64,000 nt of DNA from an uncultured bacterium (GCA_964385615.1 CAYLPP010000004.1:108743-172742); one strand, 5' to 3'. Counted from the stretch's first letter, positions 9,571 to 48,279 are shown. Numbers and translations are program-made. Notes: generated by a model from the letters alone, not told the origin.

Positions 9571-9609
9571 TACTTTTTTCATAAAGCAAGACCAGAAAGT
9601 GGAGGTTTT

Positions 9610-31304: not shown

Positions 31305-32440
31305 TCGAAATTATTTCAGCTCTGGTCTGCCTGATTTGGCTTTTTCAGGCTGAGGATATCGTCCGCGGAATTCTTTTTCGCACACCCGTTCTGAAAGCCG
31401 GGCCCCGGGCTGTTCCTCAACCCGCTCCCAAAATCAGCATTATTTTTTCCGCCCGCAATGAATCCGCGAATGTCCGGCCGGCGCTGGAATCCATGCTGGG
31501 TCTGGATTATCCTGACTACGAAGTGATCGCCGTCAATGACCGCTCTGAGGATGAAACCTACGCGGTTTTAAAATCTTTTCACGACCCCAAACTGCAGGTG
31601 CTGAATATTCTGGAGCTTCCGGAAGGGTGGCTGGGGAAAAATCACGCGCTTTTTGAAGCTTACCGCCACTCTACAGGAAGCTGGCTTCTTTTTACTGACG
31701 CGGACGTTCATTTTCATCGGGACACCCTCAAAGCTTCGGTGGAGATGATTCAGGAAAAAAATCTGGATCATCTGGTGGTTTTTCCTGACATGATCTGCGG
31801 AAAGTGGATTGAAAAAATTTTCTGCTCTGCGTTCATTCTGGCTTTCTTCCGAAGGTTTCGTCCCTGGAAGGCGCTTGACCCTGAATCTGAAAATTTTATC
31901 GGAGTCGGAGCGTTTAATATGGTCCGGCGTGAAACTTACCGGGGTGCCGGAACGCATCAAAAAATCGCAATGGACGTCCTGGATGATATTCATCTCGGCC
32001 GGATGATTAAGGTGTTTGGCGGACGCCAAATGGGTGTTTGCGGGCCGGAACTGGTGAAAGTCCGCTGGGCTGTCGGCTGGGAGGGCGTTCTCAAAAGTCT
32101 GGAGAAAAACGCTTTCGCGGGATTTGATTACAGCGCGCCGCTTTTAGTGCTCGCGACCTTTGCCGGCATTTTGCTGGATGTGCTTCCTTTCCCTGCGCTA
32201 TTTTTTCCGAAAACATTTTTACCCGCGATGGTCGCGGTTTTCTGTATTGCCGCGGCCTATGCCGCGGGCAGTCGAATCAACCGCGGAACCTGGGTTTCAT
32301 TTTTTCTCCATCCTCTTGGAATGCTTCTTATTCTCGCGCTGATGTGGCGTTCCGCCCTCAAAGTCTTAAGTGAAGGGGGCGTGACCTGGAGGGGAACTTT
32401 TTACCCTTTGGACCAGCTCCGGGCTTATAGCAAAAAATAG
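31301..32440 (+). CDS. Family 2 glycosyltransferase with a C-terminal membrane domain
   Basis: GT-A signature (IIFSARNES..YEVIAVNDRSEDET, ..DAD.. DxD) followed by several TM helices. Confidence 0.75.
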   Translation: MIEIISALVCLIWLFQAEDIVRGILFRTPVLKAGPRAVPQPAPKISIIFSARNESANVRPALESMLGLDYPDYEVIAVNDRSEDETYAVLKSFHDPKLQVLNILELPEGWLGKNHALFEAYRHSTGSWLLFTDADVHFHRDTLKASVEMIQEKNLDHLVVFPDMICGKWIEKIFCSAFILAFFRRFRPWKALDPESENFIGVGAFNMVRRETYRGAGTHQKIAMDVLDDIHLGRMIKVFGGRQMGVCGPELVKVRWAVGWEGVLKSLEKNAFAGFDYSAPLLVLATFAGILLDVLPFPALFFPKTFLPAMVAVFCIAAAYAAGSRINRGTWVSFFLHPLGMLLILALMWRSALKVLSEGGVTWRGTFYPLDQLRAYSKK

Positions 32441-32541: not shown

Positions 32542-35500
32542 ATGAAAAGTTATAAAAAACCTAGAGCCTTACGGCTGACTGCGCTTGCGGTTCTACTCTG
32601 CTTTCTTACCTCGCAGGGCGGGCCGGAGGCACGCGCTTTTTCGGCTCCTGAAGGCCCCTCGATCCCTCAAAAATTTGTCCATCTCGAGGAGTCCTTTCAA
32701 GGGACTTCCGGCAAAACTCTTCTATTCATTCAGGATGCCCATGAGTCTCTGGAAGCTCAGGAGAATATCGCGAAAGCGATTCAGTATTTCGTGGGGAGCC
32801 AAGGGGTCAAGACGGTGTATGAAGAGGGGTATGAAGGTGAAGTGCCGACGGATTCCTATTTCGCGTTTATCCATGATCCCAAAATCCGCCGGAGAGTCTC
32901 CTATTTCTTTTTGGATAAGCTTCGTATCGGCGGAGCGGAATTCGCCCATATCAACCGGGAAAAAGATTTTAAACTGATCGGGGCCGACAGCATCAAACTG
33001 CATCTTGAAAATATCGCGCAGTACCAGAAAGCTTCGGCCCGGCAAAAGGAAGTCGCTGAAGATCTGCGCGCGGTTTTAACCGAATTTGAAAAACTGGGTA
33101 ATTCTCATTACTCTGAAAAAATTAAAATCTGGCTGAAACTTCGCGGAAGATTTGATTCGAACCGGCTTCCGCTTCCTGACTACCTCAAAAGAACCGCGGG
33201 CCTTCTGGCGGATACCCGCGCTTACCCGCTTATCTCCCTTTTAATCTCGCCGGGCATTAATCAGGACCGGGAAAAGCTTAAAAAGCTTGAAGCCATGGAC
33301 CCCCGTCAGCTTTTTTCTGAAATTGACCGGATGGAAAATGATTTAGCCCAAAAGGAACTTAAGGGGAAAGAAGAACTGAAAATTTTTCAGTATCAAAAAG
33401 AGATCATGCTCCTGGTGCGGTTGAACAATCTTGAGGTCAGCGCTCCGGAATATGAAACGGCGCAAGCTGTTCTGGAAAAACTTCAGACGCGGGAGCTTGC
33501 GGAATTTATTGCCCGTGAAAGTAAGAGGACTCAGGTTCTATCCCGGGAATGGGAAGAGGAAATCCGGCACGCGCTGGATTTCTATAAAATCGCTAATGCG
33601 CGTGATCGTGAAATTGAAAGGGGAATTGAAGGGTTTCTTAAAAATCCGGATGAAAACACCGCGGTTCTGGTTTTTGGCGGATTTCATAAGAACGCGGTGA
33701 AGTCTTTTCTCAGGAGCAGGAATATTTCTTATCAAATTCTCAGCCCAATTATCAGCGGGGAAGACGCGGTTCACAGGGCTTACTACCGTGAGCTGATGTC
33801 TGAGGGATTTTACGATTTTGAAAAAATCGCTGCCCCCAGCCGGGCCGCAAGACCGCAAACTCTCATGACTTTACCGCAGGCGCGCAGTGAAATCCGGGGT
33901 GTTTACCGGACCGCGCTGGATAAACCGGATCTTGAATATCCTCTTTTTGAAAAAGAAGCCGTCCGCGCCTTCAACTCCCCGGCGGCCCGTTCCGAACTCC
34001 GTAAAATGTTCGCCGTGGAAGATGAAGTTGTCAGAGTCGAGATTGCCCAAACTTCCGGCAAGTATGTTCTGAGCGCTTACAACCTGCGTAAACAGGAAAC
34101 AGAGCCGCGTGTTCGGGTGGAGCTGATTGAGCCTTTATCCGGTGAAGAAGAACCTGCCAGGCTTGTGTTGGGAGATATTGTTGAGTCGCATATCCGCGCG
34201 GATGAGTTTTTAAGAAGGGCTCTTTATGTTTTACTGAAAAAATCCAGCGTGCAAATGGTGGGGTACCTTCCGAAAACCGGATCGGCGGAAGAGATGGACA
34301 AAATTTTCACATGGCTCGAAAAACAACCTGGGATATCGCTGTTAAAAGGAAACTCCGCCACGGTCAAGTACGATGCTGCGGAAGTTCTTATGCCCGGGTA
34401 TTTTATCGGGGAATGGAACCGTATCCGCAGTTCGAAAGATTACGGCGAACAGGTTTCGGATTTTCTGGACAGCCTGCTTTTATTTTATTCCAGCGAAACG
34501 GATAAAAAGCATCTTCATGATTTTCTGCTTTTTCTTCTTCGAGATCCGGATTTTATAATCAGACGCCAGGCCGTCGAATTAATGCTTAGGTACGTAAGAA
34601 TTCCTGTCGACCAGATTTTTCTCCACCTTGAAAATCCTGATTCAGGGCCTTTCAGGGATGACCAGGTTTCTCTCCCGAATCCTCTAAGCTCGGAATTGGC
34701 AACCGCGAATAAACGGCTGGCTCTCCTGGTTTTTCTTTCTCAAATTTCACAAGCCGTAAAAGCTCAGCGCTGGGCTGTAGACGCGTATTATGGGGCTGTC
34801 CTCAGACAGAGGTTTGCCAGTGAACTTGAAACTTCAGCCGGAGACCCTGTTTTTGATATCGCGAATGAAAGCGCGCTGATGGAGTCCATACAGAATGAAC
34901 CTAAAGCCGGCTTGGGGCATGCTGGAAAGATGAGTGCGCTGGAAGTTCTGGTCAGGGAATATTTCCGCTATTTGTACGTGACGGAGGTCCGGAAACAGGC
35001 GGATCCTTTTAAATGGCTCCATGATGATTTGTATGCCATGGTTCCTCAACTGAAGATCCCCAAGACTGAAGCGCTCATTATTCGAATGACTTCGAAGTTC
35101 CGCTCCGAACTCAGGACCGAAAATCCATGGGATGGCCGTGTCCGTGAAGTCCGCCTCAATGCGGACCGTTCCGCGGCTTCCGTGGTATTTGAAGACGGGA
35201 AAACGGTTGAGCTGACAGAAAAATTCGAAGAGGGCGCTTACCATGAATTTTTCGCTTATCATGAAAATGGGCGTAGGCTTCTGCTAAAGGTCATGAAGCC
35301 CGGTTTAGACGGGGACCGGTATGACAAGGGCGTAAAGTCACTGGAAAATGAAGCCCGAATATCTGATATTTTGAGACGCGTCAAGCATATGCAGAACGTA
35401 ACCAATGTTATCTGGCTTGGAACGATCCCCGGTTCCGGCGACGCGCTTTTAATTTCCGGACCCGAAGCTCAAAGCCTAAAAGATTGGCGTGAACGTCTTA

Positions 35501-38500
35501 CGCTTCAGGAACGGGGCGGTGTTTTTCGCCAGTACGTGGAGCAGATTTTTCAGGCCTATTCCGGCCCGGAACGCGAGAGTGTCTCGATCCACGATTTGAA
35601 ACCGGCGAATGGACTGCTCAAAGTCACCCGAAATCCCGACGGCAGTCTCCGCTATACGGTGCATGTGATTGATTTGGAAGCCGGAAAAATGACGGAAGAC
35701 ATTCCTTTCCGTGATATCTGGCGCGGCACCTATCCCTACCTGCCTAACGCGGAGCTGATCGCAATGCTGATGACGGAGCTTGGCCGTCACAAAACTTTGG
35801 GGTTGGTTGGTTTTATGGAATTGCTGATTTTCTTTCAGGATTTTGTTCTGGATGATGACGCTATGAACGGGGGAACCGCGAATGTCGAGAAATTTTTGCG
35901 GCGCAAAGACAAAGCGGTTTTCGAGAATATCGTTAAAAAAATCAGTGATTACGAAAAGTACCGGAAAATCTGGTATTACGAGGAGCATCCCGGCGATCCG
36001 GTTGACCTAAACGCGCTTTTCGCGGATTTGATTGAAAGCTTGCGGGTCATTGAGGGGTTTAAGGTTCGAAAAGTTCTATTTGTGGAGAGCTGGTGGAATT
36101 GGTTCGCGGGTTTCATCTCAATGATCTTTCGTAAACTCCTGGCTCTTTTGCCCAAGAGAACCCGCGCGCTGCCTTTCGAATTTAATGATGCGGAGTCGAC
36201 GCGATTGCCGGCAGCGCCTCCGGCGGATGACGGGATTTCGTCCGAAGCGCCTACCCCCAGACCTGAAACCGCGGGAACGGATACGCTTTCTCAGTTCCGC
36301 CGTTTAATGTTTCTTCTGGAAGCCTTGGGCCCTCAGTTCTCAGAAAGAGATTTCGTCCGAAAGGGAAACCGGACGGTGCGTGAGTTAAGTTCTCTTTACC
36401 TGATCGAAAAAGCGGCGGAATCCAACGACGCTCTTGATGTTTCCATTTACGAACAAGCGGAAAATGATGTCCGGCGCGTTTACGGCTGGCTAAAACGGCC
36501 TGTCGATTCTTACGCTGAAGATACGATCCGTTATATCCGTGAAAAATTTATAACCCCGCGTTCCGAGCTCCGGACGGCCGCGCGGGTGGAGGATAACGGT
36601 GTTAAACTTCGTGAAATTCTAGGACGGCTTATCCGCACGCGCACTTCCGGGGAGGTTGTTATTTTGCCTGGAATCTCCCAGCATCCTGCCGTGATTGATA
36701 AAGACACACTCGAAAAAGATAAAAAAGCCCTGACAGATCTGATTCGTTTGTATCTCAAGCAGGCGATCAGCCTGGGTCCGCCTTCTTCCTATTATCTTCC
36801 TTGGGATATTTTTCCCTTTGAGCGGAACTCCATTGAACTTGAAACCTTAGTGTCTCTCGGCCGTTATCTGGGATTTTGGAAAACGGAGCCTGATCCCGGA
36901 AGCAAATTTCCTTCAGCTGCTATTCTGCGCACTTACCGCACGCGAATTCCTCTAATTGGAGATTTTAATCTGCATGGCGACAGTGTTAAAGAAGGCAGGC
37001 TGGCTGAATTGAACGATCTTGAGCGTCTGGAGATTCTTCACCGTGTTTTTGCTGAAGTGAAGACGGAAATGGAAACGGAAATGCTCCCCGGATATTTTGA
37101 TATGAGCGGGCCTTTGCGTTTCGATTCTTTCAGGGAGATTCCCGGCATTGACGATCTGGAAGATTTTGAAAGGAGAGGCGTTTTGGGGAAAGGTAAAGAA
37201 GCGGCGGTTTTTTCCGCGGGGACGGGCACTCTTCCCGCGCTTCTGGCGGCTTTCACCCGAAGCGGGAAGATTACCGTTTATGAGAAGAATAGTTATTTTT
37301 TGGCAAAGGCCCGCAAGGCGGTAGAGCGGCTGCATCATCTGGGAGTTCTCGATGAAGGGCGCTTTACCTGGGTCAAAGAAGATTGGAGAAATCAAAAAGA
37401 TGATTGGAAAAAATTTGATTTCATCCTTTTACCGCCGGCCGGACAGAGTGAAAGTCCGGCTTCCGAAAAAGAAATTCAGGAATCGGTATCCGCTCAAGCC
37501 GTTGTTTATAAATTCGCCCGATCTGAAGTCAGATCCGTGAGGGCTTTGATTCAGCAAGCGGACCATCTTGAGAGGACCGGCGCTTTAATTCCGGAAGTTT
37601 CATCGCAGTTTGTGAATCGGCATATGGGGCCTTACCGCACCGCGCTCCAATTATTGACTAACCGGATTTTGGCGGAAGATCTTAGTGATGATGCTTTTCT
37701 TGAGCTTTGGACGGAATACCTTAAGGCTCTGAAAACCGCGGATTTGCCTCTCCTCGTGCAAGTTCCGATTCATATCGTTGCCGTGATGCGGATGCATGGC
37801 GCTCAAATGGCGAGCTGGGCGCGTGTCTGGTTTTCAAAACCCAGAAAGGATTGGCGCCGGATCGTTCATGTTTTGTCCGCTGAAGCAGGAGATGAAACGC
37901 TCATGGGAACCTTGCTTCGGCGGGAGATTCTGCCGTTCATGGATTCTTATATGAACGCCCGTAAAAGAGAATGGATGGATGAGAAGACGCCTGAAGACCG
38001 CGCTGCAAGATGGAAATATCATTGGACCCAGGCGGGTGAGAATCCGGGCGTGGAAGCGGTAGAAAAAGCGGGCTCTGATTATCTGGAGGAATTTATTCAA
38101 GGATTGCCGGTTTCTTTCCGCCAGACGGATCCGGGCAAAGACTGGCCTTCGCAGAGTCAGAGTCTTTTGGAAATGCTGAGTCCCGCGGGCGACGGGCTTT
38201 TAAGTCTGATTATTGAAGCTGAGGAAAAGAGCGGATTAGACGCCTCTCAGTTGATTGTGCAGTTTGATGAAAGATTAAATTTCCTTCCGGCGTTCGTGCA
38301 CAAGCTTTTTATGAATGATTTGCTGAAAAAATACAAAGTCTATCTTTTAAAGATTTGGCTGCGTAATCTCCAGGAACAGGCGGGATTTGAATATCAGGCA
38401 GGAGATTATTTCGGGCAAGTGAAAATCACCATAGAAGCCAAGGCAAATGAAGGTGCCGGTTTAAAAGCATATTTTTCGGGAGCTCCGGATTGGAAATTTG

Positions 38501-41500
38501 AGCCGGATGGACGGACTTTAAAATTTCCCGAACTTTCGGGAGTGGAAGATTCGGAAAATCGCCCGGGGATGTTCAAGGCTCCCGGCGTTTTTTGGCAGAT
38601 TTTAGGAGATTTTCAGCTGAAGTTTCTGGAAAAAGACGGGCGCAGAATACTGGTTCCGATCGCTTATCTGGAAGAAGTTCAATCTTCCACAGGTTATAGG
38701 GATATTCGAAATAGAACGGAGCATCTTAAAAGCGCGCGTAAACTGAACCGGGGCCGGACTCTGGCTGTGGACGCTGTCGCGCGCGCGGCCGCGAAAATGG
38801 GGGTTCTTGTTATGGCCCGCGGTCCGGAAACCGCGTCTCTTTTTATCTATAACCGCCGGACACTCGCGCAGATTGATCCGGGAAGCCGGACGGAAATCGA
38901 AATGCACTATGTCTCGCCTTTTTCCAACACGCAGCACTGGAAAAAAGTGGAAGCGCCTTCTTACGCGGGTACGGATTATTATCTGTTCGAAGGCAACCGC
39001 GAGGTTTTAAAACGTCACGGCTGGCCGGAAGACACGATTCAGCAGCTTCTCCGCTCAGAAGTCCGGAGAGATCCCCGCGAAAATATCCGCATGGACTTAA
39101 CTGAAAACTGGCGCCGGTTTCTAAATGGCGAGGCCGCGGATCCTGAAATCGCAGATCAGGTGGAGCGGGCTTTAAAATCGAAACTGGATCATTATCTTTT
39201 GATAACCGCGCTGATACGGCTTCACGTTTCCCAGGCGGTTACGGAAGAACAAATATTTTCGGGGCTCGAAAGGCTGATGGAGTCCGTGAGTACCGAAGGC
39301 AAAGAATATCTTTCCATTCTCGGGATCATTCTGAGTCAGCGGAATTTCGCGGAAGGTTTTGCGGGTTTGAATCCGGAGAGCGGCGCTTTTTATTTCGACT
39401 TGATCGGCATGACGCAGACGGGTGATGTGCTCCCTGAAGTCCGGCCTTTGAATCAGCGCAATGAAGCCGTGGGCGCGCTCTTGAATTTGGATGCTCCGGA
39501 TAAAAAAACGCTCATGGATGGTGTCAGGGACGTCACGGGTGAGAAAGCTTTAACCCCGGAAGATTTAAATCCGCTTACGGATATTGTCCGGATTCAGGCC
39601 GGAGACACTCAGGATGTCTACATGATTTCGGCGCTCCTTAAAGACGGACGCCGGGTTCCTTTTATTTTAATGGCAGCCAGGGGCCGGACCGCGCTTCGTG
39701 CCGTGAGAAGGGAGTTTGAAAATTTTGAACCTTACCGGGATGATGAAAGAGCGGTTCATGTTATTGGCTGGAGTCAAACCGGCAATGAGGCAGGCTACAC
39801 GAGCCGATTTTCCAATACTGAGGAAATTATCTATGTTTCCATGAGCGAACCGGCTCTTCATGGAGAGACACCCGGGAATTTTACCAAAAATTCCGACCTT
39901 CCGCTTCGTGTCGGTGAAATTAGAGGAGCAGAAAGCCTGCGCAAAATTACAGCCGCGTTCGCGTCCGCGATTGTTTATTTTTACAAGGCTGATTTAAAAA
40001 GAAGCGTCCAGTTTATTGTTAGTTCCGCCGGGGATCTTAATTTTTACGATTCCGACTTTCAGCCGATCGCGGAACAGCCGGGGAAATACGAAGTGAAGCC
40101 CGAAGTTGAGAAGCTCCGCACACGGCTGATTGCTTTTCGAGGCTACAATGATGAGGTTGATCCCGCGCATTTGATCGCGGAGCTTTTCGATTTTACTTAT
40201 TTTACTCCCGACAGTTCTGATCTTATGACCGGTCCTGTTCATGATGACGCGATGATCCAGGGTGTTCTTGATGGTCTGGTTCAGGGACTGGAGGATAAAC
40301 TGAAAGACCCGGTTCTCGCGCGTAAGACCGCCATGGAATGGCTTCAAGCCTATCTGAACGCGTTTAGTGATTATGAGAATCCCGTTTTCGGCCCGCCCAT
40401 CAATGTTATCCCTGAAGTCCGCGGGCGGATTGCCCGTCTCCGCCGCGAAGTTAAGCAGGCGGAAAAGCGCTCAGAGCTGAGGGTAAACCCGAAGTCTGAA
40501 GGTCTGGATTTGAATGGTTACGCGTGGCTGAAAGAATTACCCGTGGCGCACTTCAAGGAGCTGAAGGATTTTTTGGAGATGCTTTTCGGCCTGGATCAAA
40601 GCGGGAAACTTTTGGAATTGGAGAAGAGAGAGAGAATTCTCGAGCAGTCAGCGTATTTTTTGCGTTTATTCCAAGACCGCGTTAAATATCCCCGGGGGTT
40701 TGATGAGATTCCCCCGGGTATATTTGCCCATTCCGCCGGAATGTTTTTTATCAGCAATTTATCGTATCTGGGTATTTACAGACAATTGGAATCAGAAGGC
40801 GTGCTTCAGCCGGGTGCGGTTAAAAACCTGATAGAGCTGGGGCCCAGCTTTTGGAATTATTCCTCCGTTCTCCAAAAAGCTTATCCCAACCTTCAGCATG
40901 CTCTGGGGGTGGACAATGATCCCGCCAAAACGGCAGGTTTTCAGCAAGGTGCTGTACAGCTTTTAGGTGTTGACCCTGCCGTTTTTCAGTATGAGATCGC
41001 GGACTTTAAATCGCTTGATCAAAATCAAAAAATCCGGCAGTGGATGGATCAAAACGGAAAATCCGACGTTCTATTTCTTCAAAACCCAGAGCCTCAGAGC
41101 CGTCCGGGTGTTTTCTTTACAGTGCCCGAATACCGCGATTTTTTAGCGCGTGCCGGAAGCCTGCTTGATGAAAAAGGCAAGATGATCGTGGTCATTGATG
41201 AAGACCGTCTCGATCATGACGGAAATCCCGAACTTTTATCCGTCATTCGAGGGCTTGTTTATCAAACTTTAACCGGATTCCGAATTCCTCAGCAGGCTGG
41301 ATTTTTAGGAATGCCGGAACTTCGGAAGGTGAAAATTCTGGCGATTCCTCAGCCGGAACTTGTCCGCTTGGCTCAGCGCTCCGAAATGCGCGCGCTCAAT
41401 TTTACGCCGGTTTACGCGGTGGAGGAGCGGATTGAACTGATTGAAGAAATCCGCAAGCAAAGCGCGCTCAACTCAGAGCCCCCGTTTGTGATTCTTGAAG

Positions 41501-44500
41501 GCGGAAAAGGTTCCGGCAAGTCCACTCTGGCCCGGCAAATCGCGGGCTCTTTATCTCAAAAAGAACCCGGGCGTGAAGGGGTTGTGATTGAAGCGGATTG
41601 GTTTCACCGGGTTCCTTCAGGGCTGACGGCTCAGCTTCGGCGCCTCGCGGGGCTTTTCTTTTGGATGATACTGAGATGGGTCCGGATTTTATCCGAAGAG
41701 GCATTCAATCAGAAAATTTTCGAAGCTTACTTTGATCAGGAAGCTTTACAGAGGTTTCTTCACGATCTCGGCAGCGCGCGGACTTCATCTGAACCTGTTC
41801 CGGTTAAAATCAGGGACCATATTAAAAAAGAAGACGTTTCTGTTTTAATAGGCCGGCGCACGCCCGTGGTTTTTGAGGGCATGCTTTCTACCTTTCTGCT
41901 GAAGGGCTGGTCCGGTATCCGGGTTCATGTGATGACGCCTGGAGCCCGGGCCCGCGAGCGTTATAAGGCCAGGGAGAAACAAAAGGGGAAGGGGAATTTC
42001 CGGATTTTCATGGAGTCCCATGATTTTCTGGCTGGGTGGTTCAACCGTCACGGCCGCAAGGTGCAATTTGATTACGGCTACGTGACAACCGCCAATTTCC
42101 TTAAAGACTCCGCGTGGACGATGATTCAGCTTTCAGGCGGAAAGGGAACCCGAATGGGCCCGGGAGTTCCAAAACCTTTGCGTCAGCTCAAGGGGAAGCC
42201 TCTTTTTGAATACTCTCTGGATACAGCCAAAAGAAACGGGCTTCCTGTCATCGCGGTCGGCTCTTCAAACCAGGATTTGAGAAAAGCCCTGAAACCGCGC
42301 GTTCAGGGATATGTGGAAGAAGAGAGTTCGGTTGAGTCCGCGTTCTTTTCACCTTTGAGTAAATATGGATTCCTGAAAGGGAATTTAGTTTTTATCGGCG
42401 GGGATACGGTGATCACCGATCCCTCCATCCTGCGATCATTGATGCTCGCCCATGAAAAAAAATCACTCATTCCGGCGCTGATGACCTTTTCAACGGTTCG
42501 CGTATCCAACCCGCAAGGCCTGGACCGGGTTGTCCGCGATTCCAAAGGCCGCTACGTGACTTTTATCAAACAGGAAGAAATCGAGTGGCTTAGATCTTCA
42601 GGGCAGACGTTGAAGCTTGGCGATGGAACGGAACTCAAAACTTCTGAGCTTGACGCGATTAATGAAGTCTGGCCCGCGGTGATCGCGATGAGTGCGTTCG
42701 CGTACAGGATTCTGGGTTTTCTCCTTAAATTTAAAGATGCTTTTACGGTGCCGAAGTTCGTGAAAAAGAAAACGATTTCCGTGGATAAAATTCTCAATCG
42801 CGGAGCCCGGCGCCGGTTTCTGATGGCGCTTGGCGCGGTCCGGATTCATCAAATAGAGCAAAAAGACGCCATCCTCAATATTAATACGCCCCAACAGCTT
42901 GAGGAAGCTGAGAGAACTTTAACGGCCCGTTCCGAACTGAGAACCAGCCAGGCGGCGGAATTGGTCCGGGACCTTCAGCGCTGGAAGCTGGGGTTTCACT
43001 CGGAAGGGTTCGCGCTGGAAATTTACGCCCGCGAAATTCTTCTTTTGAAGGAACTTGGAATTTTAAATGAATCGTCTTCGGTTTTCAGTTTTTTGACCGG
43101 CGCGGATTTTCTTCCCGGGTTATTTGCGGGGAAATTTTACTCAACCGAGAAACGGTTTAACGCGGAGCAGATGGGACGTATCTGGAGTTTGACGGCCAAG
43201 AGGGATGCGTTTAAAAGTAATTTGCCGGTCAGCGACGCGGAAATGGAAGCGCTGAAGGCTAAAACGGAACATGAACAGGCGGATGTTCTTAACCCTGAAT
43301 TTATTAAGCGGTGGACGGGGAAAATGAAAGCCGGCGACACGGTTTATCTGCGTTTTGTTCCTGAGCATCTCTCGGACGGGGTTGGACGGAGGGATGTCCG
43401 AAAAATTGAAACCTGGCTGGATCAGCTGATCACCTTGGCGCCTGACGGCGTGCATTTTGTGATTTTTGATTTTAACGAGTCTTCACTTCCCGGCGGTACC
43501 GCCGGATACCTTCAGAGCCGTTATGCCGGCATTCTTACTGACGAAATAAAGTTCCGGCTGGGCAAAGAAGAATATCTCGAATGGCAGAAAATCAATGAAT
43601 GGGAAATACTCGGGCGTCATCTTAAGCGGGTTTCTCTTTCTCTGGACGGACAGCTGATGGATCTTGCTCAAGGCGGACGATTGACGGTTCTAACCAAGCC
43701 TCCGGCGAGGTCGGAGAGCAGGAATTTGCCGGACGCTCAGCCTCCCGTGGAAATTTCGTTTGAAAAAATAGACGGATTCATGCAGGAGATTCGAAGCCTG
43801 ATGGCCCGCAAACCCTGGAATCTTTACAATATTTCAGAGAAGGAAGAATACGTTGCGGACGCGGCGAAGGCTTATCTGGAAAAGATTCAGGGAATTCTTG
43901 AATCGGTTTCCGCCGAAGTCAAAACCTCGAAAGACGCTGTCCGGCTCCGTCTGCTTGAAACCGCGGCGGAGGATTTTGATTATTTCCTGAATGTTTTAAT
44001 TCTTCTCGAAAACCGCGAGCTTAAAGAAGTCAGCTGGAACCGTCTGGAAAAAGGCCAGGGGATTCATCATTACTTTAAATTTGATTACAAAAGCAGAACT
44101 TATTCCGTGGAGGTTTTTGCCCGCTGGTCACGGGGGCAGGGTCCCGAGGCCCGTTTTGAAATCAATTTCCCTCAGCAGGATAGGGAGAGTTTTCGTCTAG
44201 ATCTAAGTTCTTATCTTGGAAATTCAAGAGCCTCTTTTGATATGCCGACGTCGGTGCGGAAACTGGTGCCCGATCATACGGAGCTCTTTCATCATAATAT
44301 TCCTGATCTTTCCTATCAGGAAAATTTTCAGAACTACGTGATTGGGCTTGACCAGAAAATTTCACGTTCGGAATTGCGGGGGTCTCTGCCGCTGATTGAG
44401 ACTTCCGCTAAAAAGCCGCGCCGTGATCCGGAGCTTGTGGAGAAAATGAAGCTGAGGATTACGGTTGTGGGGGCAACGGCGGAAGACATCGCTAAAGGAC

Positions 44501-47500
44501 AACAGTCGTTGGACTCGATTTTTGAAAAAGAAAAGAACCGGAATCTTTCGGTTTACGAACAGGATCTTTTTGATTTTTACGTAAACGGGGAAGGCCGGGA
44601 CGTGCCTTTGGAATACCGCCCAGGGATGCATGGGGGAACAGGCTATTTCGGAAATGATAATGATAAAGGCCGGCCTTACGTCTGGTTCAGCGACGGCCGG
44701 ATGATCAGTAGCCGGTTCCGGGATCCCCGTTCTCCATTTGAAATATTTAAACATGAAGCTTCCCACACGATGGACGCCATCATGGAAAGAAAAGGCGATT
44801 CTAATCTGAAGGGGTATGCCGGTTTTCAGGGCCAGACCAATTCGGGAGTCGATATCTTTTATGTTCCTCAGCATCGGCTGGTTTACCAGGAATTTCGCGC
44901 CAACCTCTGGACTTACGACGGGAATCCCGGCCTGGCGCTCAAAGCTACTTTGCAATCCTATCCGGAACTGCGCACTCTCTTTAATGGAATCGCGGATGTT
45001 GAGAAAAAACCAGCTCCTGTTTTGTACACAGCCTTGAAATGGATGAGCCGTGACATGAATGACCAGCTTTATCCGGATTCAGTTTCCGATATCGGGCAAT
45101 TTGATCAGATTTACATTCACTGGTACCTCGAATTCGCTTCCGGACGGGTTAAAAAACTCAAACGCTCTGAGCTGCGTATGGAAGATATCAACACTATGAA
45201 CGCTTCAGAACTATTTCAGAAACTTCGGGACTCGAGGCTCGGCGACCTGGAAGAGCGGGCGGAGCTTCACCGGCAGTGGTCGGAAGTTCCCGCGGAAAAG
45301 CGCAGGCGGGGCGTGGGAATGATTGTTCTGAGGAAAATCGGCGGGGAATGGAAGGTTCTCTTTGGCCGGCAGAATCACGGCCGTTACAACGGTAAATATG
45401 TAGCTCCTTCCGGCGGAGTTGATAAACCTTTTGATCCGGTTTATGAAAATGCCGCTGAAACCGAAATCCTTCTTAAAAGCGGCATTGTGCAGGATTTTGA
45501 CGGCGCGCGCGGCGGAAAAGAATCCGCCCAGGCCGCGGTTCTGCGGGAACTCAAAGAAGAAACAGGGATCGAGGGGCGGATTGCGGCCCGGCTTGCGGAC
45601 CGCTTTGCCGCCGACGACGGTCTTTTTATGACCTATTTTATTCATGTGGATTCCGGCGAAGATGAAACCGTCCCGGAGCGTGATGGGGAAATCGAACCTC
45701 TGATATGGGTTCCGCTCAGCGTGATTCTGAAATCTGAATCCGGCCAGGCCGGGCAGACTGTTGAACGGGAATTTAATATCGAGTTTGTGCCGGGTCTTAA
45801 ACGGCGTGTTTTGAATATTCTGAAAGACCGGATTCAGTCGCTTCCTCGCTCCGAATTGCGCAATTCTCAGGAGCCTTACGAAAAGCGTCAGGGCCCCACG
45901 GATTTCGAATGGGTCACGCTGAATACCGCCCGTTTTTACGATCATTTGCGTCTGTTGTGGAGTTTGACGCCTAATGTCGCGAAAATCAGGCAGGAATCCA
46001 TGGCGTTCAGCGACGAAGAAAGAGAATCCTTTTTTGATTGGATTGTCCTTCCTTCACCCGCGATGCCGCCGGCGGAATCGCTTCGAAAAATTCTGCATTT
46101 AATCGTAGAGCAGCGGATTCTAGCCAGTCAAAGTAAAAACAGCGATGCTATTTTAAACGCGAATGACTGGGCCGATGTGCTGGCTTACCGCTGGAAAGTT
46201 CCGCCTCAGGTTTTGCAGGCGTTGTTTTTATGGATGGCGCGTTCTTCAATACGCCCGTCGGAAGTTTCGTCTCAGACGCTGATCGATTTTATGAATGCTT
46301 TCATCAGCAGTTACACTGAGGGAAGGCCAAAAGCTTATCAATGGACGCATTTTGGGCCCGCGATTCCCGCCGGTGAATCGGCTGAAGCTAAGCTGAATCG
46401 CGTGACTGCCAGTATTAACACGGCCAAGGCGCTGTTCGGTGAAGATTTTGTGCGGGGGAAAACGCGTTTTATTTCCCGTATCGGCGATTCGCCTTACTAC
46501 ATCGGATTCGGTTTCGGATTCGCGTCTGAGGATCCGTTCCGTCCCACGCTGATTCTAGGTGAGTGGAAAGACGGACAGAAAAATGTTTTTGAACGGGTTT
46601 TCTTTAAAATGAGTTTTGATATTGCCGATACCGGCCGTTTGCAGATTGTCACACTCAAAGGGATCAAGGGCAAAGAAACGGTTATTACCGATTTTCGTTC
46701 CGCGATGGGCGGCTCTCTGGGGCCCGGCCGCGCGCTTTTGACTGCTGCCGCAGTTTTCGCCCGCAAATATAGTTACCGCGAAGTTCTTGGATTAAAAGGG
46801 GAGCATCATACGACCGCTCCGGACGGAAAGCCTTTGAATTACAGCGCGATTTATAAAGGATTCGGTCTCCGTAAAAATTCCAAGGAGGGCCCCTGGCAGT
46901 CGACGGACGTTCTTTTTGAGCGGTTCTCCAGAATCCGGGCAGCGGGTGACGCCAACGCGCAATCGCTTACCCGTTTTCTCGAGGTTTCAGAAAAAATACT
47001 GCCGGCGATCCCTGCCCGCTCCGAACTGCGTACTGAGGAGGAGGATTTTTCCAAAAGCCTCCGGCACATTGAGCTTAAAAAATCCATGACAGACGTAGAA
47101 ATCAAGAAAGTCAGCGACGGATATCCGGGCAAAACACCGATGAGGGGGAAAACGCCGGTGACTAATAACCGTCTGTTGACGAAGATTTTGGACCGGCAAA
47201 AGGGCGAACCCCGTTTTCCTTCGTTGCTGGCCGGGAAACATGTTCTTTTAATCGGGCCGTCGCCGGAAGGCGATGATCTGGAGGCGCTGATCAGACGTTA
47301 TCCTGGGATCGGTAATATTTATCTCGTGGACGCAGACGAAAGAGTTTTTATCGGCAATGACCGCAAACTGCAGGATATGCAGGCCTCAGGAATTGCTTTA
47401 CCCAAAGTGGAAGGTTACAAAATTAACGCGCTTGAATTACCCGGGGAGTGGACGGAGCAAGTCGATGTCGCTATTCACGCGATGGTCATTGACCAGTTCT

Positions 47501-48279
47501 TTTTCAATCCGGCGCAGATCGGGCAGTTTGCCAATGAGATGGTCCGTGTGCTCAAACCCGGCGGCGCTGAGCTTTCCGTCGTCTTTGCCGACGATATTCA
47601 CGCTGGAGACGGGCGAATTCAGAAAATCAATGACTCCCTGCATCTCAAGACTGCCCGCTCTGAAATTCGTCTGGCCGCGGTGCAGCCGACGCTTAACGTG
47701 CGTCAGTCGCTTAAGAATCTGAAAACGCCCGCGTTGGTTTATCTGGATTATAAAAACCTGATGGAAAAATTCTGGGATTCCGAAAAGAACACCTGGAACG
47801 AGCAGGGGATGGAAATTATCGCCATGACCGCAATGCACCCGGACAAAATCCGTCTGGTGATTTCAGGCGCGGATCTGATGGATGACCGGCTGAAAGCTTT
47901 TCGGGACTTGCGGGATTCCGGGAAGAATGTGCGGATCACGGACTTGTCCGCGGCTGAAGCCTATGAAGCTTCGCAAAAGGATTTCATTAAGGGCTGGAAA
48001 AATCATGTGAGTATTCATCTCTCCAAGGATCTGCCCGGGCTTAAGAACTCTTTTAATAAAACCCAGCAATCTGAGATTTATTTCTTCCGTTACGCTCGCC
48101 AGGACAGGCAAGGCGGCTTGCTGGCGGCGGCTCTGCTCTGGGCGCAATACGCGGAAGACGGCAAAACAATGGACGGTGTTACCCGGGATGAAGAAGGTTT
48201 CCTGACCCTGACGGAAGGGTTTATCCGCCAGATCATTCAGAAGTACGAAGCCCGTCTGGTTGTCGCTTTCTCGGCGTAA
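32542..48279 (+). CDS. Giant secreted multi-domain protein (5245 aa) carrying a series of unrelated enzyme-like modules
   Basis: Uninterrupted 15.7-kb ORF. It opens with a signal peptide (MKSYKKPRALRLTALAVLLCFLTSQGGPEARA/FS). Motif-level modules are listed as separate features below. Confidence 0.8.
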   Translation: MKSYKKPRALRLTALAVLLCFLTSQGGPEARAFSAPEGPSIPQKFVHLEESFQGTSGKTLLFIQDAHESLEAQENIAKAIQYFVGSQGVKTVYEEGYEGEVPTDSYFAFIHDPKIRRRVSYFFLDKLRIGGAEFAHINREKDFKLIGADSIKLHLENIAQYQKASARQKEVAEDLRAVLTEFEKLGNSHYSEKIKIWLKLRGRFDSNRLPLPDYLKRTAGLLADTRAYPLISLLISPGINQDREKLKKLEAMDPRQLFSEIDRMENDLAQKELKGKEELKIFQYQKEIMLLVRLNNLEVSAPEYETAQAVLEKLQTRELAEFIARESKRTQVLSREWEEEIRHALDFYKIANARDREIERGIEGFLKNPDENTAVLVFGGFHKNAVKSFLRSRNISYQILSPIISGEDAVHRAYYRELMSEGFYDFEKIAAPSRAARPQTLMTLPQARSEIRGVYRTALDKPDLEYPLFEKEAVRAFNSPAARSELRKMFAVEDEVVRVEIAQTSGKYVLSAYNLRKQETEPRVRVELIEPLSGEEEPARLVLGDIVESHIRADEFLRRALYVLLKKSSVQMVGYLPKTGSAEEMDKIFTWLEKQPGISLLKGNSATVKYDAAEVLMPGYFIGEWNRIRSSKDYGEQVSDFLDSLLLFYSSETDKKHLHDFLLFLLRDPDFIIRRQAVELMLRYVRIPVDQIFLHLENPDSGPFRDDQVSLPNPLSSELATANKRLALLVFLSQISQAVKAQRWAVDAYYGAVLRQRFASELETSAGDPVFDIANESALMESIQNEPKAGLGHAGKMSALEVLVREYFRYLYVTEVRKQADPFKWLHDDLYAMVPQLKIPKTEALIIRMTSKFRSELRTENPWDGRVREVRLNADRSAASVVFEDGKTVELTEKFEEGAYHEFFAYHENGRRLLLKVMKPGLDGDRYDKGVKSLENEARISDILRRVKHMQNVTNVIWLGTIPGSGDALLISGPEAQSLKDWRERLTLQERGGVFRQYVEQIFQAYSGPERESVSIHDLKPANGLLKVTRNPDGSLRYTVHVIDLEAGKMTEDIPFRDIWRGTYPYLPNAELIAMLMTELGRHKTLGLVGFMELLIFFQDFVLDDDAMNGGTANVEKFLRRKDKAVFENIVKKISDYEKYRKIWYYEEHPGDPVDLNALFADLIESLRVIEGFKVRKVLFVESWWNWFAGFISMIFRKLLALLPKRTRALPFEFNDAESTRLPAAPPADDGISSEAPTPRPETAGTDTLSQFRRLMFLLEALGPQFSERDFVRKGNRTVRELSSLYLIEKAAESNDALDVSIYEQAENDVRRVYGWLKRPVDSYAEDTIRYIREKFITPRSELRTAARVEDNGVKLREILGRLIRTRTSGEVVILPGISQHPAVIDKDTLEKDKKALTDLIRLYLKQAISLGPPSSYYLPWDIFPFERNSIELETLVSLGRYLGFWKTEPDPGSKFPSAAILRTYRTRIPLIGDFNLHGDSVKEGRLAELNDLERLEILHRVFAEVKTEMETEMLPGYFDMSGPLRFDSFREIPGIDDLEDFERRGVLGKGKEAAVFSAGTGTLPALLAAFTRSGKITVYEKNSYFLAKARKAVERLHHLGVLDEGRFTWVKEDWRNQKDDWKKFDFILLPPAGQSESPASEKEIQESVSAQAVVYKFARSEVRSVRALIQQADHLERTGALIPEVSSQFVNRHMGPYRTALQLLTNRILAEDLSDDAFLELWTEYLKALKTADLPLLVQVPIHIVAVMRMHGAQMASWARVWFSKPRKDWRRIVHVLSAEAGDETLMGTLLRREILPFMDSYMNARKREWMDEKTPEDRAARWKYHWTQAGENPGVEAVEKAGSDYLEEFIQGLPVSFRQTDPGKDWPSQSQSLLEMLSPAGDGLLSLIIEAEEKSGLDASQLIVQFDERLNFLPAFVHKLFMNDLLKKYKVYLLKIWLRNLQEQAGFEYQAGDYFGQVKITIEAKANEGAGLKAYFSGAPDWKFEPDGRTLKFPELSGVEDSENRPGMFKAPGVFWQILGDFQLKFLEKDGRRILVPIAYLEEVQSSTGYRDIRNRTEHLKSARKLNRGRTLAVDAVARAAAKMGVLVMARGPETASLFIYNRRTLAQIDPGSRTEIEMHYVSPFSNTQHWKKVEAPSYAGTDYYLFEGNREVLKRHGWPEDTIQQLLRSEVRRDPRENIRMDLTENWRRFLNGEAADPEIADQVERALKSKLDHYLLITALIRLHVSQAVTEEQIFSGLERLMESVSTEGKEYLSILGIILSQRNFAEGFAGLNPESGAFYFDLIGMTQTGDVLPEVRPLNQRNEAVGALLNLDAPDKKTLMDGVRDVTGEKALTPEDLNPLTDIVRIQAGDTQDVYMISALLKDGRRVPFILMAARGRTALRAVRREFENFEPYRDDERAVHVIGWSQTGNEAGYTSRFSNTEEIIYVSMSEPALHGETPGNFTKNSDLPLRVGEIRGAESLRKITAAFASAIVYFYKADLKRSVQFIVSSAGDLNFYDSDFQPIAEQPGKYEVKPEVEKLRTRLIAFRGYNDEVDPAHLIAELFDFTYFTPDSSDLMTGPVHDDAMIQGVLDGLVQGLEDKLKDPVLARKTAMEWLQAYLNAFSDYENPVFGPPINVIPEVRGRIARLRREVKQAEKRSELRVNPKSEGLDLNGYAWLKELPVAHFKELKDFLEMLFGLDQSGKLLELEKRERILEQSAYFLRLFQDRVKYPRGFDEIPPGIFAHSAGMFFISNLSYLGIYRQLESEGVLQPGAVKNLIELGPSFWNYSSVLQKAYPNLQHALGVDNDPAKTAGFQQGAVQLLGVDPAVFQYEIADFKSLDQNQKIRQWMDQNGKSDVLFLQNPEPQSRPGVFFTVPEYRDFLARAGSLLDEKGKMIVVIDEDRLDHDGNPELLSVIRGLVYQTLTGFRIPQQAGFLGMPELRKVKILAIPQPELVRLAQRSEMRALNFTPVYAVEERIELIEEIRKQSALNSEPPFVILEGGKGSGKSTLARQIAGSLSQKEPGREGVVIEADWFHRVPSGLTAQLRRLAGLFFWMILRWVRILSEEAFNQKIFEAYFDQEALQRFLHDLGSARTSSEPVPVKIRDHIKKEDVSVLIGRRTPVVFEGMLSTFLLKGWSGIRVHVMTPGARARERYKAREKQKGKGNFRIFMESHDFLAGWFNRHGRKVQFDYGYVTTANFLKDSAWTMIQLSGGKGTRMGPGVPKPLRQLKGKPLFEYSLDTAKRNGLPVIAVGSSNQDLRKALKPRVQGYVEEESSVESAFFSPLSKYGFLKGNLVFIGGDTVITDPSILRSLMLAHEKKSLIPALMTFSTVRVSNPQGLDRVVRDSKGRYVTFIKQEEIEWLRSSGQTLKLGDGTELKTSELDAINEVWPAVIAMSAFAYRILGFLLKFKDAFTVPKFVKKKTISVDKILNRGARRRFLMALGAVRIHQIEQKDAILNINTPQQLEEAERTLTARSELRTSQAAELVRDLQRWKLGFHSEGFALEIYAREILLLKELGILNESSSVFSFLTGADFLPGLFAGKFYSTEKRFNAEQMGRIWSLTAKRDAFKSNLPVSDAEMEALKAKTEHEQADVLNPEFIKRWTGKMKAGDTVYLRFVPEHLSDGVGRRDVRKIETWLDQLITLAPDGVHFVIFDFNESSLPGGTAGYLQSRYAGILTDEIKFRLGKEEYLEWQKINEWEILGRHLKRVSLSLDGQLMDLAQGGRLTVLTKPPARSESRNLPDAQPPVEISFEKIDGFMQEIRSLMARKPWNLYNISEKEEYVADAAKAYLEKIQGILESVSAEVKTSKDAVRLRLLETAAEDFDYFLNVLILLENRELKEVSWNRLEKGQGIHHYFKFDYKSRTYSVEVFARWSRGQGPEARFEINFPQQDRESFRLDLSSYLGNSRASFDMPTSVRKLVPDHTELFHHNIPDLSYQENFQNYVIGLDQKISRSELRGSLPLIETSAKKPRRDPELVEKMKLRITVVGATAEDIAKGQQSLDSIFEKEKNRNLSVYEQDLFDFYVNGEGRDVPLEYRPGMHGGTGYFGNDNDKGRPYVWFSDGRMISSRFRDPRSPFEIFKHEASHTMDAIMERKGDSNLKGYAGFQGQTNSGVDIFYVPQHRLVYQEFRANLWTYDGNPGLALKATLQSYPELRTLFNGIADVEKKPAPVLYTALKWMSRDMNDQLYPDSVSDIGQFDQIYIHWYLEFASGRVKKLKRSELRMEDINTMNASELFQKLRDSRLGDLEERAELHRQWSEVPAEKRRRGVGMIVLRKIGGEWKVLFGRQNHGRYNGKYVAPSGGVDKPFDPVYENAAETEILLKSGIVQDFDGARGGKESAQAAVLRELKEETGIEGRIAARLADRFAADDGLFMTYFIHVDSGEDETVPERDGEIEPLIWVPLSVILKSESGQAGQTVEREFNIEFVPGLKRRVLNILKDRIQSLPRSELRNSQEPYEKRQGPTDFEWVTLNTARFYDHLRLLWSLTPNVAKIRQESMAFSDEERESFFDWIVLPSPAMPPAESLRKILHLIVEQRILASQSKNSDAILNANDWADVLAYRWKVPPQVLQALFLWMARSSIRPSEVSSQTLIDFMNAFISSYTEGRPKAYQWTHFGPAIPAGESAEAKLNRVTASINTAKALFGEDFVRGKTRFISRIGDSPYYIGFGFGFASEDPFRPTLILGEWKDGQKNVFERVFFKMSFDIADTGRLQIVTLKGIKGKETVITDFRSAMGGSLGPGRALLTAAAVFARKYSYREVLGLKGEHHTTAPDGKPLNYSAIYKGFGLRKNSKEGPWQSTDVLFERFSRIRAAGDANAQSLTRFLEVSEKILPAIPARSELRTEEEDFSKSLRHIELKKSMTDVEIKKVSDGYPGKTPMRGKTPVTNNRLLTKILDRQKGEPRFPSLLAGKHVLLIGPSPEGDDLEALIRRYPGIGNIYLVDADERVFIGNDRKLQDMQASGIALPKVEGYKINALELPGEWTEQVDVAIHAMVIDQFFFNPAQIGQFANEMVRVLKPGGAELSVVFADDIHAGDGRIQKINDSLHLKTARSEIRLAAVQPTLNVRQSLKNLKTPALVYLDYKNLMEKFWDSEKNTWNEQGMEIIAMTAMHPDKIRLVISGADLMDDRLKAFRDLRDSGKNVRITDLSAAEAYEASQKDFIKGWKNHVSIHLSKDLPGLKNSFNKTQQSEIYFFRYARQDRQGGLLAAALLWAQYAEDGKTMDGVTRDEEGFLTLTEGFIRQIIQKYEARLVVAFSA
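32700..33780 (+). other. N-terminal domain of giant ORF 1, shared with giant ORF 2; possibly TraB/GumN/Tiki-like
   Basis: LFIQDAHESLEAQ ... VFGGFHKN in ORF 1 parallels LVLHVQNIHGNYEAQ ... LVTGGFHTQ in ORF 2. A first-His motif near the N-terminus and a GGFH motif about 320 aa later resemble the TraB/Tiki GxxH pair. Confidence 0.35.
35240..35800 (+). other. Protein-kinase-like / aminoglycoside-choline-kinase-like module in giant ORF 1
   Basis: Catalytic-loop-like IHDLKPANGLL (HxDxxxxN, about 35587-35613), an upstream LLLKVMKPG (candidate VAIK lysine) and a downstream DLEAG (DFG-like). Confidence 0.45.
37190..37445 (+). other. Class I SAM-methyltransferase-like module (1) in giant ORF 1
   Basis: Motif I-like AVFSAGTGTLPALLA, an acidic post-I residue in ITVYEKN, and a motif IV-like FDFILLPPAG (compare FDLIVSNPPY of HemK-type enzymes). 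Confidence 0.35.
41500..41526 (+). other. Walker A P-loop (GGKGSGKST), kinase-type NTPase module in giant ORF 1
   Basis: VILEGGKGSGKSTLARQIA followed by VVIEADWF (hydrophobic strand plus Asp, Walker B-like). It resembles small-molecule/nucleoside kinase P-loops. Confidence 0.5.
42127..42430 (+). other. Sugar-phosphate nucleotidyltransferase (NTP_transferase) module in giant ORF 1
   Basis: LSGGKGTRMGPGVPKPL matches the (L/A)GGxGTR(L/M)xPxTxxxPKPL signature of RmlA/GlmU/LicC-type nucleotidyltransferases. FIGGDTVI lies downstream. Confidence 0.6.
44752..44766 (+). other. HExxH motif (HEASH), candidate zinc-metallopeptidase-like site in giant ORF 1
   Basis: FEIFKHEASHTMDAIM sits in a region with no other recognised fold. 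The motif alone is weak evidence. Confidence 0.25.
45300..45730 (+). other. NUDIX hydrolase module in giant ORF 1
   Basis: Canonical Nudix box GGKESAQAAVLRELKEETGIEG (Gx5Ex7REUxEExGU) at about 45511-45576, preceded by a beta-rich GVGMIVLRK segment. Confidence 0.7.
47236..47600 (+). other. Class I SAM-dependent methyltransferase module (2) in giant ORF 1
   Basis: Motif I-like KHVLLIGPSPEGDDL, then VDVAIHAMVIDQF and the classic RVLKPGG motif. Confidence 0.55.

Follow-up and report, generated by a model that had tools for sequence, protein, structure and literature searches.

A recurrent pentapeptide marks the module borders of a giant multi-enzyme protein of Omnitrophota, a possible exported cargo polyprotein

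Why should one bacterial protein hold a string of modules that resemble kinases, nucleotidyltransferases, methyltransferases and a Nudix hydrolase, all of them behind a predicted signal peptide? This question is raised by a giant open reading frame (ORF1) in a 64,000-nucleotide stretch of DNA from an uncultured bacterium (GCA_964385615.1, CAYLPP010000004.1:108743-172742; the whole stretch is referred to as the window). A first-pass annotation, made from the sequence of the window, had found that several of these modules look like a biosynthetic line for activated head groups. We report that the cargo of ORF1 is best understood, on the present support, as a set of independent modules and not as a single pathway, and that ORF1 is a member of a large, multi-copy and Omnitrophota-restricted protein family with a fixed frame. 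Our data suggest as the overall picture, to which we assign an even chance, that ORF1 is an exported, modular cargo polyprotein with a short peptide motif, R-[S/A]-E-x-R, at which it is probably cut. The features are listed in Table 1.

ORF1 was split at the recurring pentapeptide and each piece was searched separately. R-S-E-x-R occurs 15 times in ORF1, where 0.159 occurrences are expected from the composition (P 7e-25), and five times (0.056 expected) in its paralogue ORF2; in both proteins the junction pentapeptides always sit on module borders. For a broader sample 80 related loci were taken from species-representative genomes, and 71 of these gave an ORF with the same N-terminal domain. 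These 71 head-bearing Omnitrophota ORFs hold 326 motifs per 184,155 amino acids (aa) compared to 86 per 1.87 million codons in the other five frames, i.e. a 38-fold enrichment in the ORFs. The junction consensus is R-[S, more rarely A]-E-[L/V/M/A/I]-R with every fixed position being near-invariant, while no conserved sequence was found around the pentapeptide and no longer consensus could be derived. The codons for the motif vary synonymously from site to site, and the constraint therefore acts on the peptide and not on DNA or RNA; on the same grounds we rejected a nucleotide-level repeat or an RNA signal as the cause of the motif.

The surroundings of the motif have the character of flexible linkers. 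When 378 instances are taken together, hydrophobic residues make up a fraction of 0.24-0.26 within ten residues of the motif (background 0.33) and disorder-promoting ones 0.55-0.59 (background 0.49). Moreover, in the AlphaFold2 (AF2) models the predicted local distance difference test score (pLDDT) is <50 just ahead of the first motif (residues 422-447, head model) and across the motif that opens the kinase module (kinase model). The spacing between consecutive motifs has a median of 284 residues, which is the size of one enzyme. We consider proteolytic processing to be the most likely role of the junction pentapeptide. In the papers found by our literature search, neither the junction motif nor a polyprotein in Omnitrophota is described.

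Two further observations concern the junctions. The first two motifs after the head enclose a conserved peptide of approximately 35 aa (33883-34002, aa 448-487; R-S-E-I-R-G-V-Y-x-x-A-L...P...), which is also present in P0014, the closest relative found, and in many other loci; this peptide could be a released peptide or a pro-segment. In a distant relative (P0017) the variants RSDAR, RTEAR, RVEAR and RADAR replace RSExR. The motif thus varies from lineage to lineage, which is what co-evolution with a recogniser would lead one to expect.

The frame that ORF1 has in common with its relatives consists of a signal peptide, a head ("leader") domain, variable cargo and a conserved tail ("cap") domain. 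The Sec signal peptide was called by reading the sequence by eye, and the homologues are laid out alike. Relatives of residues 1-447 of ORF1 are encoded almost exclusively by Candidatus Omnitrophota genomes, several of which have at least four copies of the family, and two copies lie side by side in the window. The second of these, ORF2, is composed of a signal peptide, head, WD40 module, phosphoribosyltransferase module, five junction motifs and a tail ending in SFAKAA. A hydropathy scan of ORF1 gave no convincing internal transmembrane segment, and internal membrane anchoring was rejected as the hydropathy peaks at aa 1085 and 3379 fall within the kinase and transferase modules.

The AF2 model of the head domain has a pLDDT of 80.4, and with this model the five top Foldseek matches were EreC/BcR135 (probability 0.66-0.96). 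Among relatives, D65-x-H67, E95 (28 residues after H67) and GGFH382 are invariant or near-invariant. Active members of the TIKI/erythromycin-esterase/ChaN/TraB superfamily have a set of two His and two Glu residues (2His/2Glu), and the His-Glu spacing is 28 in BcR135 and RRSP (PMC6254334). The spacing between H67 and E95 equals that of the H85-E113 pair of BcR135, and D65, H67, E95 and H382 appear to correspond to the 2His/2Glu catalytic set. The head is thus like the superfamily in its predicted fold, with the parallel beta-sheet core of Ere, ChaN and RRSP, and in having D-x-H ... E (+28) ... GxxH, and unlike it in that it has a helical insertion of approximately 200 residues, that its first acidic residue is Asp and not Glu, and that no Pfam model of the superfamily matches. 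Specifically, 0 Pfam families were matched at E values up to 0.1 (with the TraB, ChaN and Ere models unmatched), and a profile-to-PDB search gave no TraB, ChaN or Ere protein among its matches. The head is accordingly a putative member, placed in the TIKI superfamily by predicted fold and motif alone.

A homologue of the tail domain occupies the extreme C-terminus of every complete relative; it follows directly on a junction motif, and its last residues are [S/A]-A, where the terminal Ala is invariant. The tail profile revealed no structural relative in PDB, a designed repeat protein being the only match. Every complete protein closes with a hydrophobic stretch followed by [S/A]-A (48217-48276 in ORF1, 55100-55156 in ORF2, and L004-L078), e.g. 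VVAFSA, SFAKAA and IVSQAA; this end has the look of a C-terminal tag that would be recognised, for instance, by a PDZ-type or tail-specific protease or during sorting. Several C-termini in the family have their last R-[S/A]-E-x-R 12-20 residues before the end. One protein of 696 aa (P0009) consists of head and tail without cargo and without motif, which suggests that the end domains work together and that the cargo is inserted between them.

How the cargo behaves is best seen in P0014 (3,676 aa), which has M2, M3, M6 and the tail in common with ORF1. The blocks of homology begin and end exactly at motifs (for example, residues 1-468 of M6 correspond to P0014 1653-2131, exactly motif to motif), and the order is M6, M3, M2 in P0014 as compared to M2, M3 ... 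M6 in ORF1. Pfam finds neither a Nudix nor an NTP-transferase (NTP, nucleoside triphosphate) in P0014, and for most ORF1 modules there is no counterpart in the 80 related loci. Among 149 motif-bounded modules drawn from 49 related loci, a Pfam census counted approximately nine class I methyltransferases, four HATPase_c and three GNAT acetyltransferases, two each of HD, radical SAM and Rce1-like modules, and single instances of an epimerase/dehydratase, PfkB kinase, FHA, pseudouridine synthase, response regulator and HAD; the majority of the modules are without a Pfam match. Content of this kind has been described before for much longer proteins of Omnitrophota. Blocks that end at motifs, a permuted order and such a mixed census together argue that the whole set is not one biosynthetic line. 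In the closest genome (L003) the giant gene appears to be split into three ORFs (L003:11300-13500), and this split was rejected as a data artefact, since the breaks are masked N runs.

What, then, are the individual modules? The strings quoted in the first-pass annotation all occur in ORF1. Catalytic residues were inspected, and the motifs are intact in four of them, i.e. the kinase, the P-loop, the NTP-transferase and the Nudix modules. The kinase module M3 had no match in Pfam, PDB or a word-indexed protein database when used as a single sequence. A HMMER search of 1.84 billion representative proteins recovered six relatives, of which five lie within giant proteins (1,890-5,092 aa) and the sixth is a 744-aa protein. 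In the five other giant proteins, too, the motif or one of its variants immediately precedes the kinase module. In an alignment of the seven kinase modules (M3 and its six relatives; A2) the alphaC Glu E84, the catalytic D165, P168 and D191 of I-D-L-E/G (DFG-like) are invariant, while the beta3 Lys (LLLK(916)V) and the loop Asn are each retained in six of the seven members. The A2 profile matched 537 PDB chains (best E 3e-6), and all 60 listed matches are Ser/Thr protein kinases aligned over the catalytic loop and DFG. Four of the seven A2 members matched Pfam Pkinase, at best with E 5e-4, and M3 itself is below the gathering threshold of PF00069 and has no Pfam match at all.

M3 is consequently similar to eukaryotic-type protein kinases (ePKs), including secreted bacterial effector kinases, in that it has the beta3 Lys, alphaC Glu, D-L-K-P-x-N, the DFG Asp and a bilobal protein-kinase fold; the loop D-L-K-P-A-N at aa 1018-1023 conforms to D-x-K-x-x-N. 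It differs from these in the replaced HRD His (I-H-D), in a degenerate glycine-rich loop and in the missing Pfam score. The first-pass annotation was right in seeing a kinase here. The choline/aminoglycoside type with a Brenner HxDxxxxN loop, which it had named alongside ePKs, was rejected, because the loop reads I-H-D-L-K-P-A-N with His and Asp adjacent and because the profiles lead to Ser/Thr kinases. A pseudokinase, which had been suggested as an alternative, was also rejected on residue conservation: the catalytic Lys, Glu and Asp and the DFG Asp are conserved, and the catalytic residues are kept across relatives of 23-67% identity.

M8 is a fused module. Its nucleotidyltransferase half scores 38.7 bits with PF12804 (cut-off 27) and matches the N-terminal pyrophosphorylase domain of GlmU (E 8.7e-14 in NCBIfam, 2e-9 in PDB). 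The signature LSGGKGTRMG...K from 42130 agrees with G-x-G-T-R-(M/L)...K, and GGKGTRMGPGVPKPL is present. The proposed NTP-transferase thus stands, whereas its label as a LicC/RmlA type stays below threshold (PF00483 E 0.071, 13.1 bits with a cut-off of 21.2; LicC 1jyk E 0.021). For the other half, the Walker A motif is present and conserved, and the kinase family is indicated by weak sub-threshold matches alone, i.e. AAA_18 (0.0011), Zeta_toxin (0.0014), the nucleoside/nucleotide kinase family PRK09270 (0.0018) and UCK2 (0.04). No junction motif lies between the two halves, and the fusion is present in L003 at 53% identity with the Walker A, GGKGTRM and GGDT motifs invariant; two metagenome scans for relatives of M8 found none. 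As predicted from its sequence, M8 would be the classic two-step "phosphorylate, then nucleotidylate" arrangement. It resembles LicA/LicC, AmgK/MurU, FKP and GlmU in uniting a P-loop kinase-like half with a GlmU-type pyrophosphorylase (G-x-G-T-R-M...K). Unlike GlmU it has no acetyltransferase half, and all its equivalog scores are far below cut-off. The LicA and AmgK kinases are of the APH/ChoK type and not of the P-loop kind.

The Nudix module M12 is a clear case, as had been claimed: PF00293 is matched with 44.4 bits (cut-off 21.1, E 2e-11), the Nudix box GARGGKESAQAAVLRELKEETGI at 45502-45570 is complete (G-x5-E-x7-R-E-U-x-E-E-x-G-U), and 2pqv is a PDB match.

Two or three methyltransferase-like modules had also been counted; sub-threshold matches were obtained for two, M14 and M4. 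M14 has Pfam matches that are all below cut-off (Methyltransf_25 E 4.5e-4, Methyltransf_11 E 1.7e-3, Methyltransf_12 E 8.5e-3), a glycine loop that is atypical (LLIGPSPEG) and, within YLVDAD, a beta2 Asp; PDB gave no match by sequence. In M4 the Pfam matches fall on one stretch and are below cut-off as well (MTS E 0.051, Methyltransf_25 E 0.1, Methyltransf_12 E 0.12); its elements are FSAGTGTLP (loop A-G-T-G-T), VYEKN (beta2 Glu) and ILLPPAG, and the PDB search gave spurious designed TIM barrels and no methyltransferase. A further stretch at 40700-41200 had been proposed to be methyltransferase-like. The strings in question exist within M7, yet nothing was found in Pfam even at E up to 10, in NCBIfam or in PHROGs, and the glycine loop is non-canonical (GPSFW). 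The stretch M7-M9 used as a query for homologues (word-indexed search) also found nothing. In total, eight modules (M2, M5-M7, M9-M11 and M13) are without a significant profile match in Pfam, NCBIfam or PHROGs. M11 has an HExxH motif, found by pattern search, and is a possible metalloprotease. HExxH-type modules occur in other giant relatives too, e.g. HETGHSFQGH in P0016; such modules could be alternative candidates for a processing protease.

The chromosome segment around ORF1 is of an ordinary, Omnitrophota type with housekeeping genes. The window includes genes for methionine synthase, MTHFR, several aminoacyl-tRNA synthetases, ClpC with an arginine-kinase-like gene, MlaEFD, IspDF, Tmk, HolB, MetG, TatD, MtnA, ThiL, TsaE, MutS and MutL. 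At 8506-12078 an ATP:guanido phosphotransferase gene (McsB-like protein arginine kinase) adjoins a ClpC-type ATPase gene; McsB and ClpC are a pair for the degradation of arginine-phosphate-tagged proteins in Gram-positive bacteria. The GT2 glycosyltransferase gene reported 5' of the giant gene is real (Table 1). It is located next to a giant gene in only three of the 80 related loci, all of them close relatives, and a functional tie between ORF1 and GT2 was rejected since the neighbourhood is confined to these. The order DUF6178-GT2-giant gene is preserved in the three closest relatives (L003, L019 and L007). A dedicated secretion system or protease beside the giant genes was likewise rejected, the neighbours being housekeeping genes.

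Table 1. Positions of genes, domains, modules and motifs discussed in the text, counted from the first nucleotide of the window
Feature	Position	Strand	Remarks
DUF6178 protein gene	29245-30927		directly 5' of the GT2 gene; E 2.9e-115
GT2 glycosyltransferase gene	31301..32440	+	PF00535, E 1.5e-23; 5' of the giant gene, context only
ORF1	32542..48279	+	5,245 aa; signal peptide, head, 13 cargo modules, tail (ORF list, translation)
Sec signal peptide, predicted	32542..32637	+	aa 1-32; basic n-region, hydrophobic core, A-R-A then F
Head ("leader") domain	32650..33804	+	predicted Ere/ChaN/TIKI-superfamily fold; ~390 residues
Junction RSEIR (aa 448)	33883..33897	+	immediately C-terminal to the head domain
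Junction RSELR (aa 483)	33988..34002	+	second motif after the head
M2	33988..35100	+	no Pfam match; motif-bounded homologue in P0014
M3, opens with RSELR	35101..36558	+	divergent Hanks/ePK-type kinase; core ~35137-36120
M3 Lys	35278-35298
M3 alphaC Glu	35341-35361
M3 catalytic loop	35587-35619		IHDLKPAN, in the string IHDLKPANGLL
M3 IDLEAG	35665-35685
M4, opens with RSELR	36559..37518	+	weakly class-I methyltransferase-like at 37195-37446
M5, opens with RSEVR	37519..39051	+	no match in Pfam, NCBIfam, PHROGs
M6, opens with RSEVR	39052..40467	+	conserved in P0014 and L004
M7, opens with RSELR	40468..41376	+	strings of the proposed further methyltransferase at 40828-40920
M8, opens with RSEMR	41377..42927	+	P-loop kinase-like half and GlmU/MobA-type nucleotidyltransferase
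M8 Walker A	41500-41526		GGKGSGKST
M8 nucleotidyltransferase half	~42124-42582		GGKGTRM at 42130-42159
M9, opens with RSELR	42928..43707	+	methyltransferase resemblance by eye alone; profiles (Pfam, NCBIfam, PHROGs) negative
M10, opens with RSESR	43708..44364	+	no match in Pfam, NCBIfam, PHROGs
M11, opens with RSELR	44365..45162	+	HEASH (HExxH) at 44752-44766; profiles negative
M12, opens with RSELR	45163..45846	+	Nudix hydrolase; domain ~45298-45726
M13, opens with RSELR	45847..47016	+	no match in Pfam, NCBIfam, PHROGs
M14, opens with RSELR	47017..47655	+	class-I methyltransferase-like at 47242-47568
Tail ("cap") domain, M15	47656..48279	+	~190 aa; opens with RSEIR, closes with VVAFSA-stop
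ORF2	48449..55159	+	2,236 aa; same-family paralogue directly 3' of ORF1
ORF2 WD40 propeller	~51400-51880
ORF2 ComF-like phosphoribosyltransferase	~53090-53410

In the reading that we favour, a Sec signal peptide would export the chain of head, cargo modules and tail, and R-[S/A]-E-x-R, being placed in flexible linkers, would mark where the chain is processed into separate enzymes. As a relative of the site-specific endopeptidases Tiki and RRSP, the head domain would be the most obvious candidate for the protease that cuts the junctions. Because the cargo needs adenosine triphosphate (ATP), NTP or S-adenosylmethionine (SAM), the released modules would act where these cofactors occur, e.g. inside the cells of a host or of prey, rather than together as a single pathway outside the cell. 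That enzymes dependent on ATP, NTP and SAM are found behind a signal peptide is a puzzle for every reading of the locus, and action inside a partner cell would resolve it; the same contradiction was noted in a 2026 preprint (bioRxiv 10.64898/2026.06.07.730766). Several points weigh against this picture. The signs of cleavage are indirect, namely enrichment, location in linkers, shuffling and a protease-related head, and a motif of five residues could just as well serve docking or recognition. Furthermore, the signal peptide was judged by eye, no delivery machinery adjoins the giant genes among the neighbour genes examined, half of the modules are without an assigned fold, and the host cell as the site of action is purely conjectural.

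The chain may instead stay whole, as a tethered multi-enzyme coat or periplasmic scaffold in which the motif is an uncleaved docking site, a checkpoint for export or folding, or a modification site. This we consider rather unlikely but in need of serious weighing, given that the literature on Omnitrophota giant proteins favours intact surface-attached proteins, that peptides from the V. archaeovorus giant ORF have been reported, that the conserved head and tail could act as anchors, and that a motif in flexible linkers suits docking no less than cleavage. However, a near-invariant pentapeptide would be superfluous in a linker that nothing recognises, the order of the modules is free, and cargo of a cytoplasmic type (radical SAM, response regulators, pseudouridine synthase) makes little sense when tethered outside the cell. 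A more drastic suggestion is that most modules are decayed enzyme relics that now serve only to fill out a giant surface protein, for structure or adhesion. The eight modules without a significant profile match, the non-canonical glycine loops of M14 (GPSPEG) and M7 (GPSFW) and the degenerate glycine-rich loop of the kinase would fit such decay, but kinase catalytic residues that are kept among relatives with 23-67% identity, a complete Nudix box, and Walker A, GGKGTRM and GGDT motifs that are invariant between M8 orthologues of 53% identity make it very improbable.

There is also the reading of the first-pass annotation, in which the kinase and the P-loop kinase cooperate with the NTP-transferase, the methyltransferases and the Nudix hydrolase in one line. 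This line would make and trim an activated head group, to be transferred by the neighbouring GT2 or by the protein itself to a surface or host polymer. The conserved fusion in M8 of a kinase-like half with a GlmU-type nucleotidyltransferase speaks for this reading, and for M8 taken by itself the idea of head-group activation holds; the GT2 gene also adjoins the giant gene. For the set as a whole it is not supported, given the junctions, the permuted blocks and the mixed census. The set is not conserved, in that P0014 has M2, M3, M6 and the tail reordered and lacks a Pfam match to Nudix or NTP-transferase. Most modules have no homologue in the 80 related loci, the GT2 neighbourhood is restricted to three close relatives, and M3 has the signatures of a Ser/Thr protein kinase. 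Moreover, ATP, NTP and SAM are lacking outside the cytoplasm, and chemistry taking place there is hard to square with enzymes that require them. One pathway is thus, in our view, an improbable account of ORF1, and the enzyme list of the first-pass annotation, which is largely real, is better read as independent cargo.

Omnitrophota multi-enzyme giant proteins, with Nudix, methyltransferase and kinase content, are already known from published work. Like the "Archaeovorins" (West-Roberts et al. 2023, bioRxiv 10.1101/2023.11.21.568195) and the class 1 "multi-enzyme metabolic clusters" (bioRxiv 10.64898/2026.06.07.730766), ORF1 and its relatives belong to Omnitrophota, have an N-terminal signal peptide and combine mixed enzymes, including methyltransferases, Nudix, kinases, GNAT, radical SAM and HATPase. 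ORF1 is smaller, with 5,245 aa compared to the at least 30,000 aa that define those sets, and no C39 or subtilisin domain was found in it; the Archaeovorins have many transmembrane helices, whereas the hydropathy scan gave no convincing internal one in ORF1. The R-[S/A]-E-x-R junction and the frame of head and tail are not described in those papers. Post-translational cleavage has been suspected for the Omnitrophota giant multi-enzyme proteins (bioRxiv 10.1101/2023.11.21.568195; bioRxiv 10.64898/2026.06.07.730766), and the cleavage points were given as unknown, hence the proteins were not split for structure prediction (West-Roberts et al. 2023, bioRxiv 10.1101/2023.11.21.568195). Of the junction motif, the TIKI-like head and the conserved tail we found no description in the literature searched.

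The arrangement also recalls the MARTX toxins, where conserved N- and C-terminal parts enclose variable and shuffled effector enzyme modules, and where the MARTX effector RRSP has the TIKI-type fold that is predicted for the ORF1 head. In MARTX toxins the effectors are freed by site-specific proteolysis in inter-domain linkers, a step that we infer for ORF1. They differ in that neither glycine-rich repeat regions nor a cysteine protease domain was found in ORF1, in type I secretion as opposed to a predicted Sec signal peptide, and in cleavage after Leu as opposed to an Arg-flanked pentapeptide.

Omnitrophota are characterised by their large and giant multi-enzyme proteins, which may work whole or in pieces. 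The near-invariant pentapeptide on the module borders offers a testable rule for dissecting these proteins, a target site for proteome studies and a candidate enzyme, i.e. the head that is kin to site-specific proteases. We tentatively suggest that R-[S/A]-E-x-R may be the long-missing processing site of the giant and large secreted proteins of Omnitrophota, that a TIKI-type head, or a dedicated protease with the same recognition site, may free the enzymes, and that head and tail may form a generic cargo vehicle, open to the shuffling of any cargo the size of a gene and used to supply or attack partners. If this is true, ultra-small, host-dependent bacteria would have their own equivalent of viral polyproteins and MARTX toxins.

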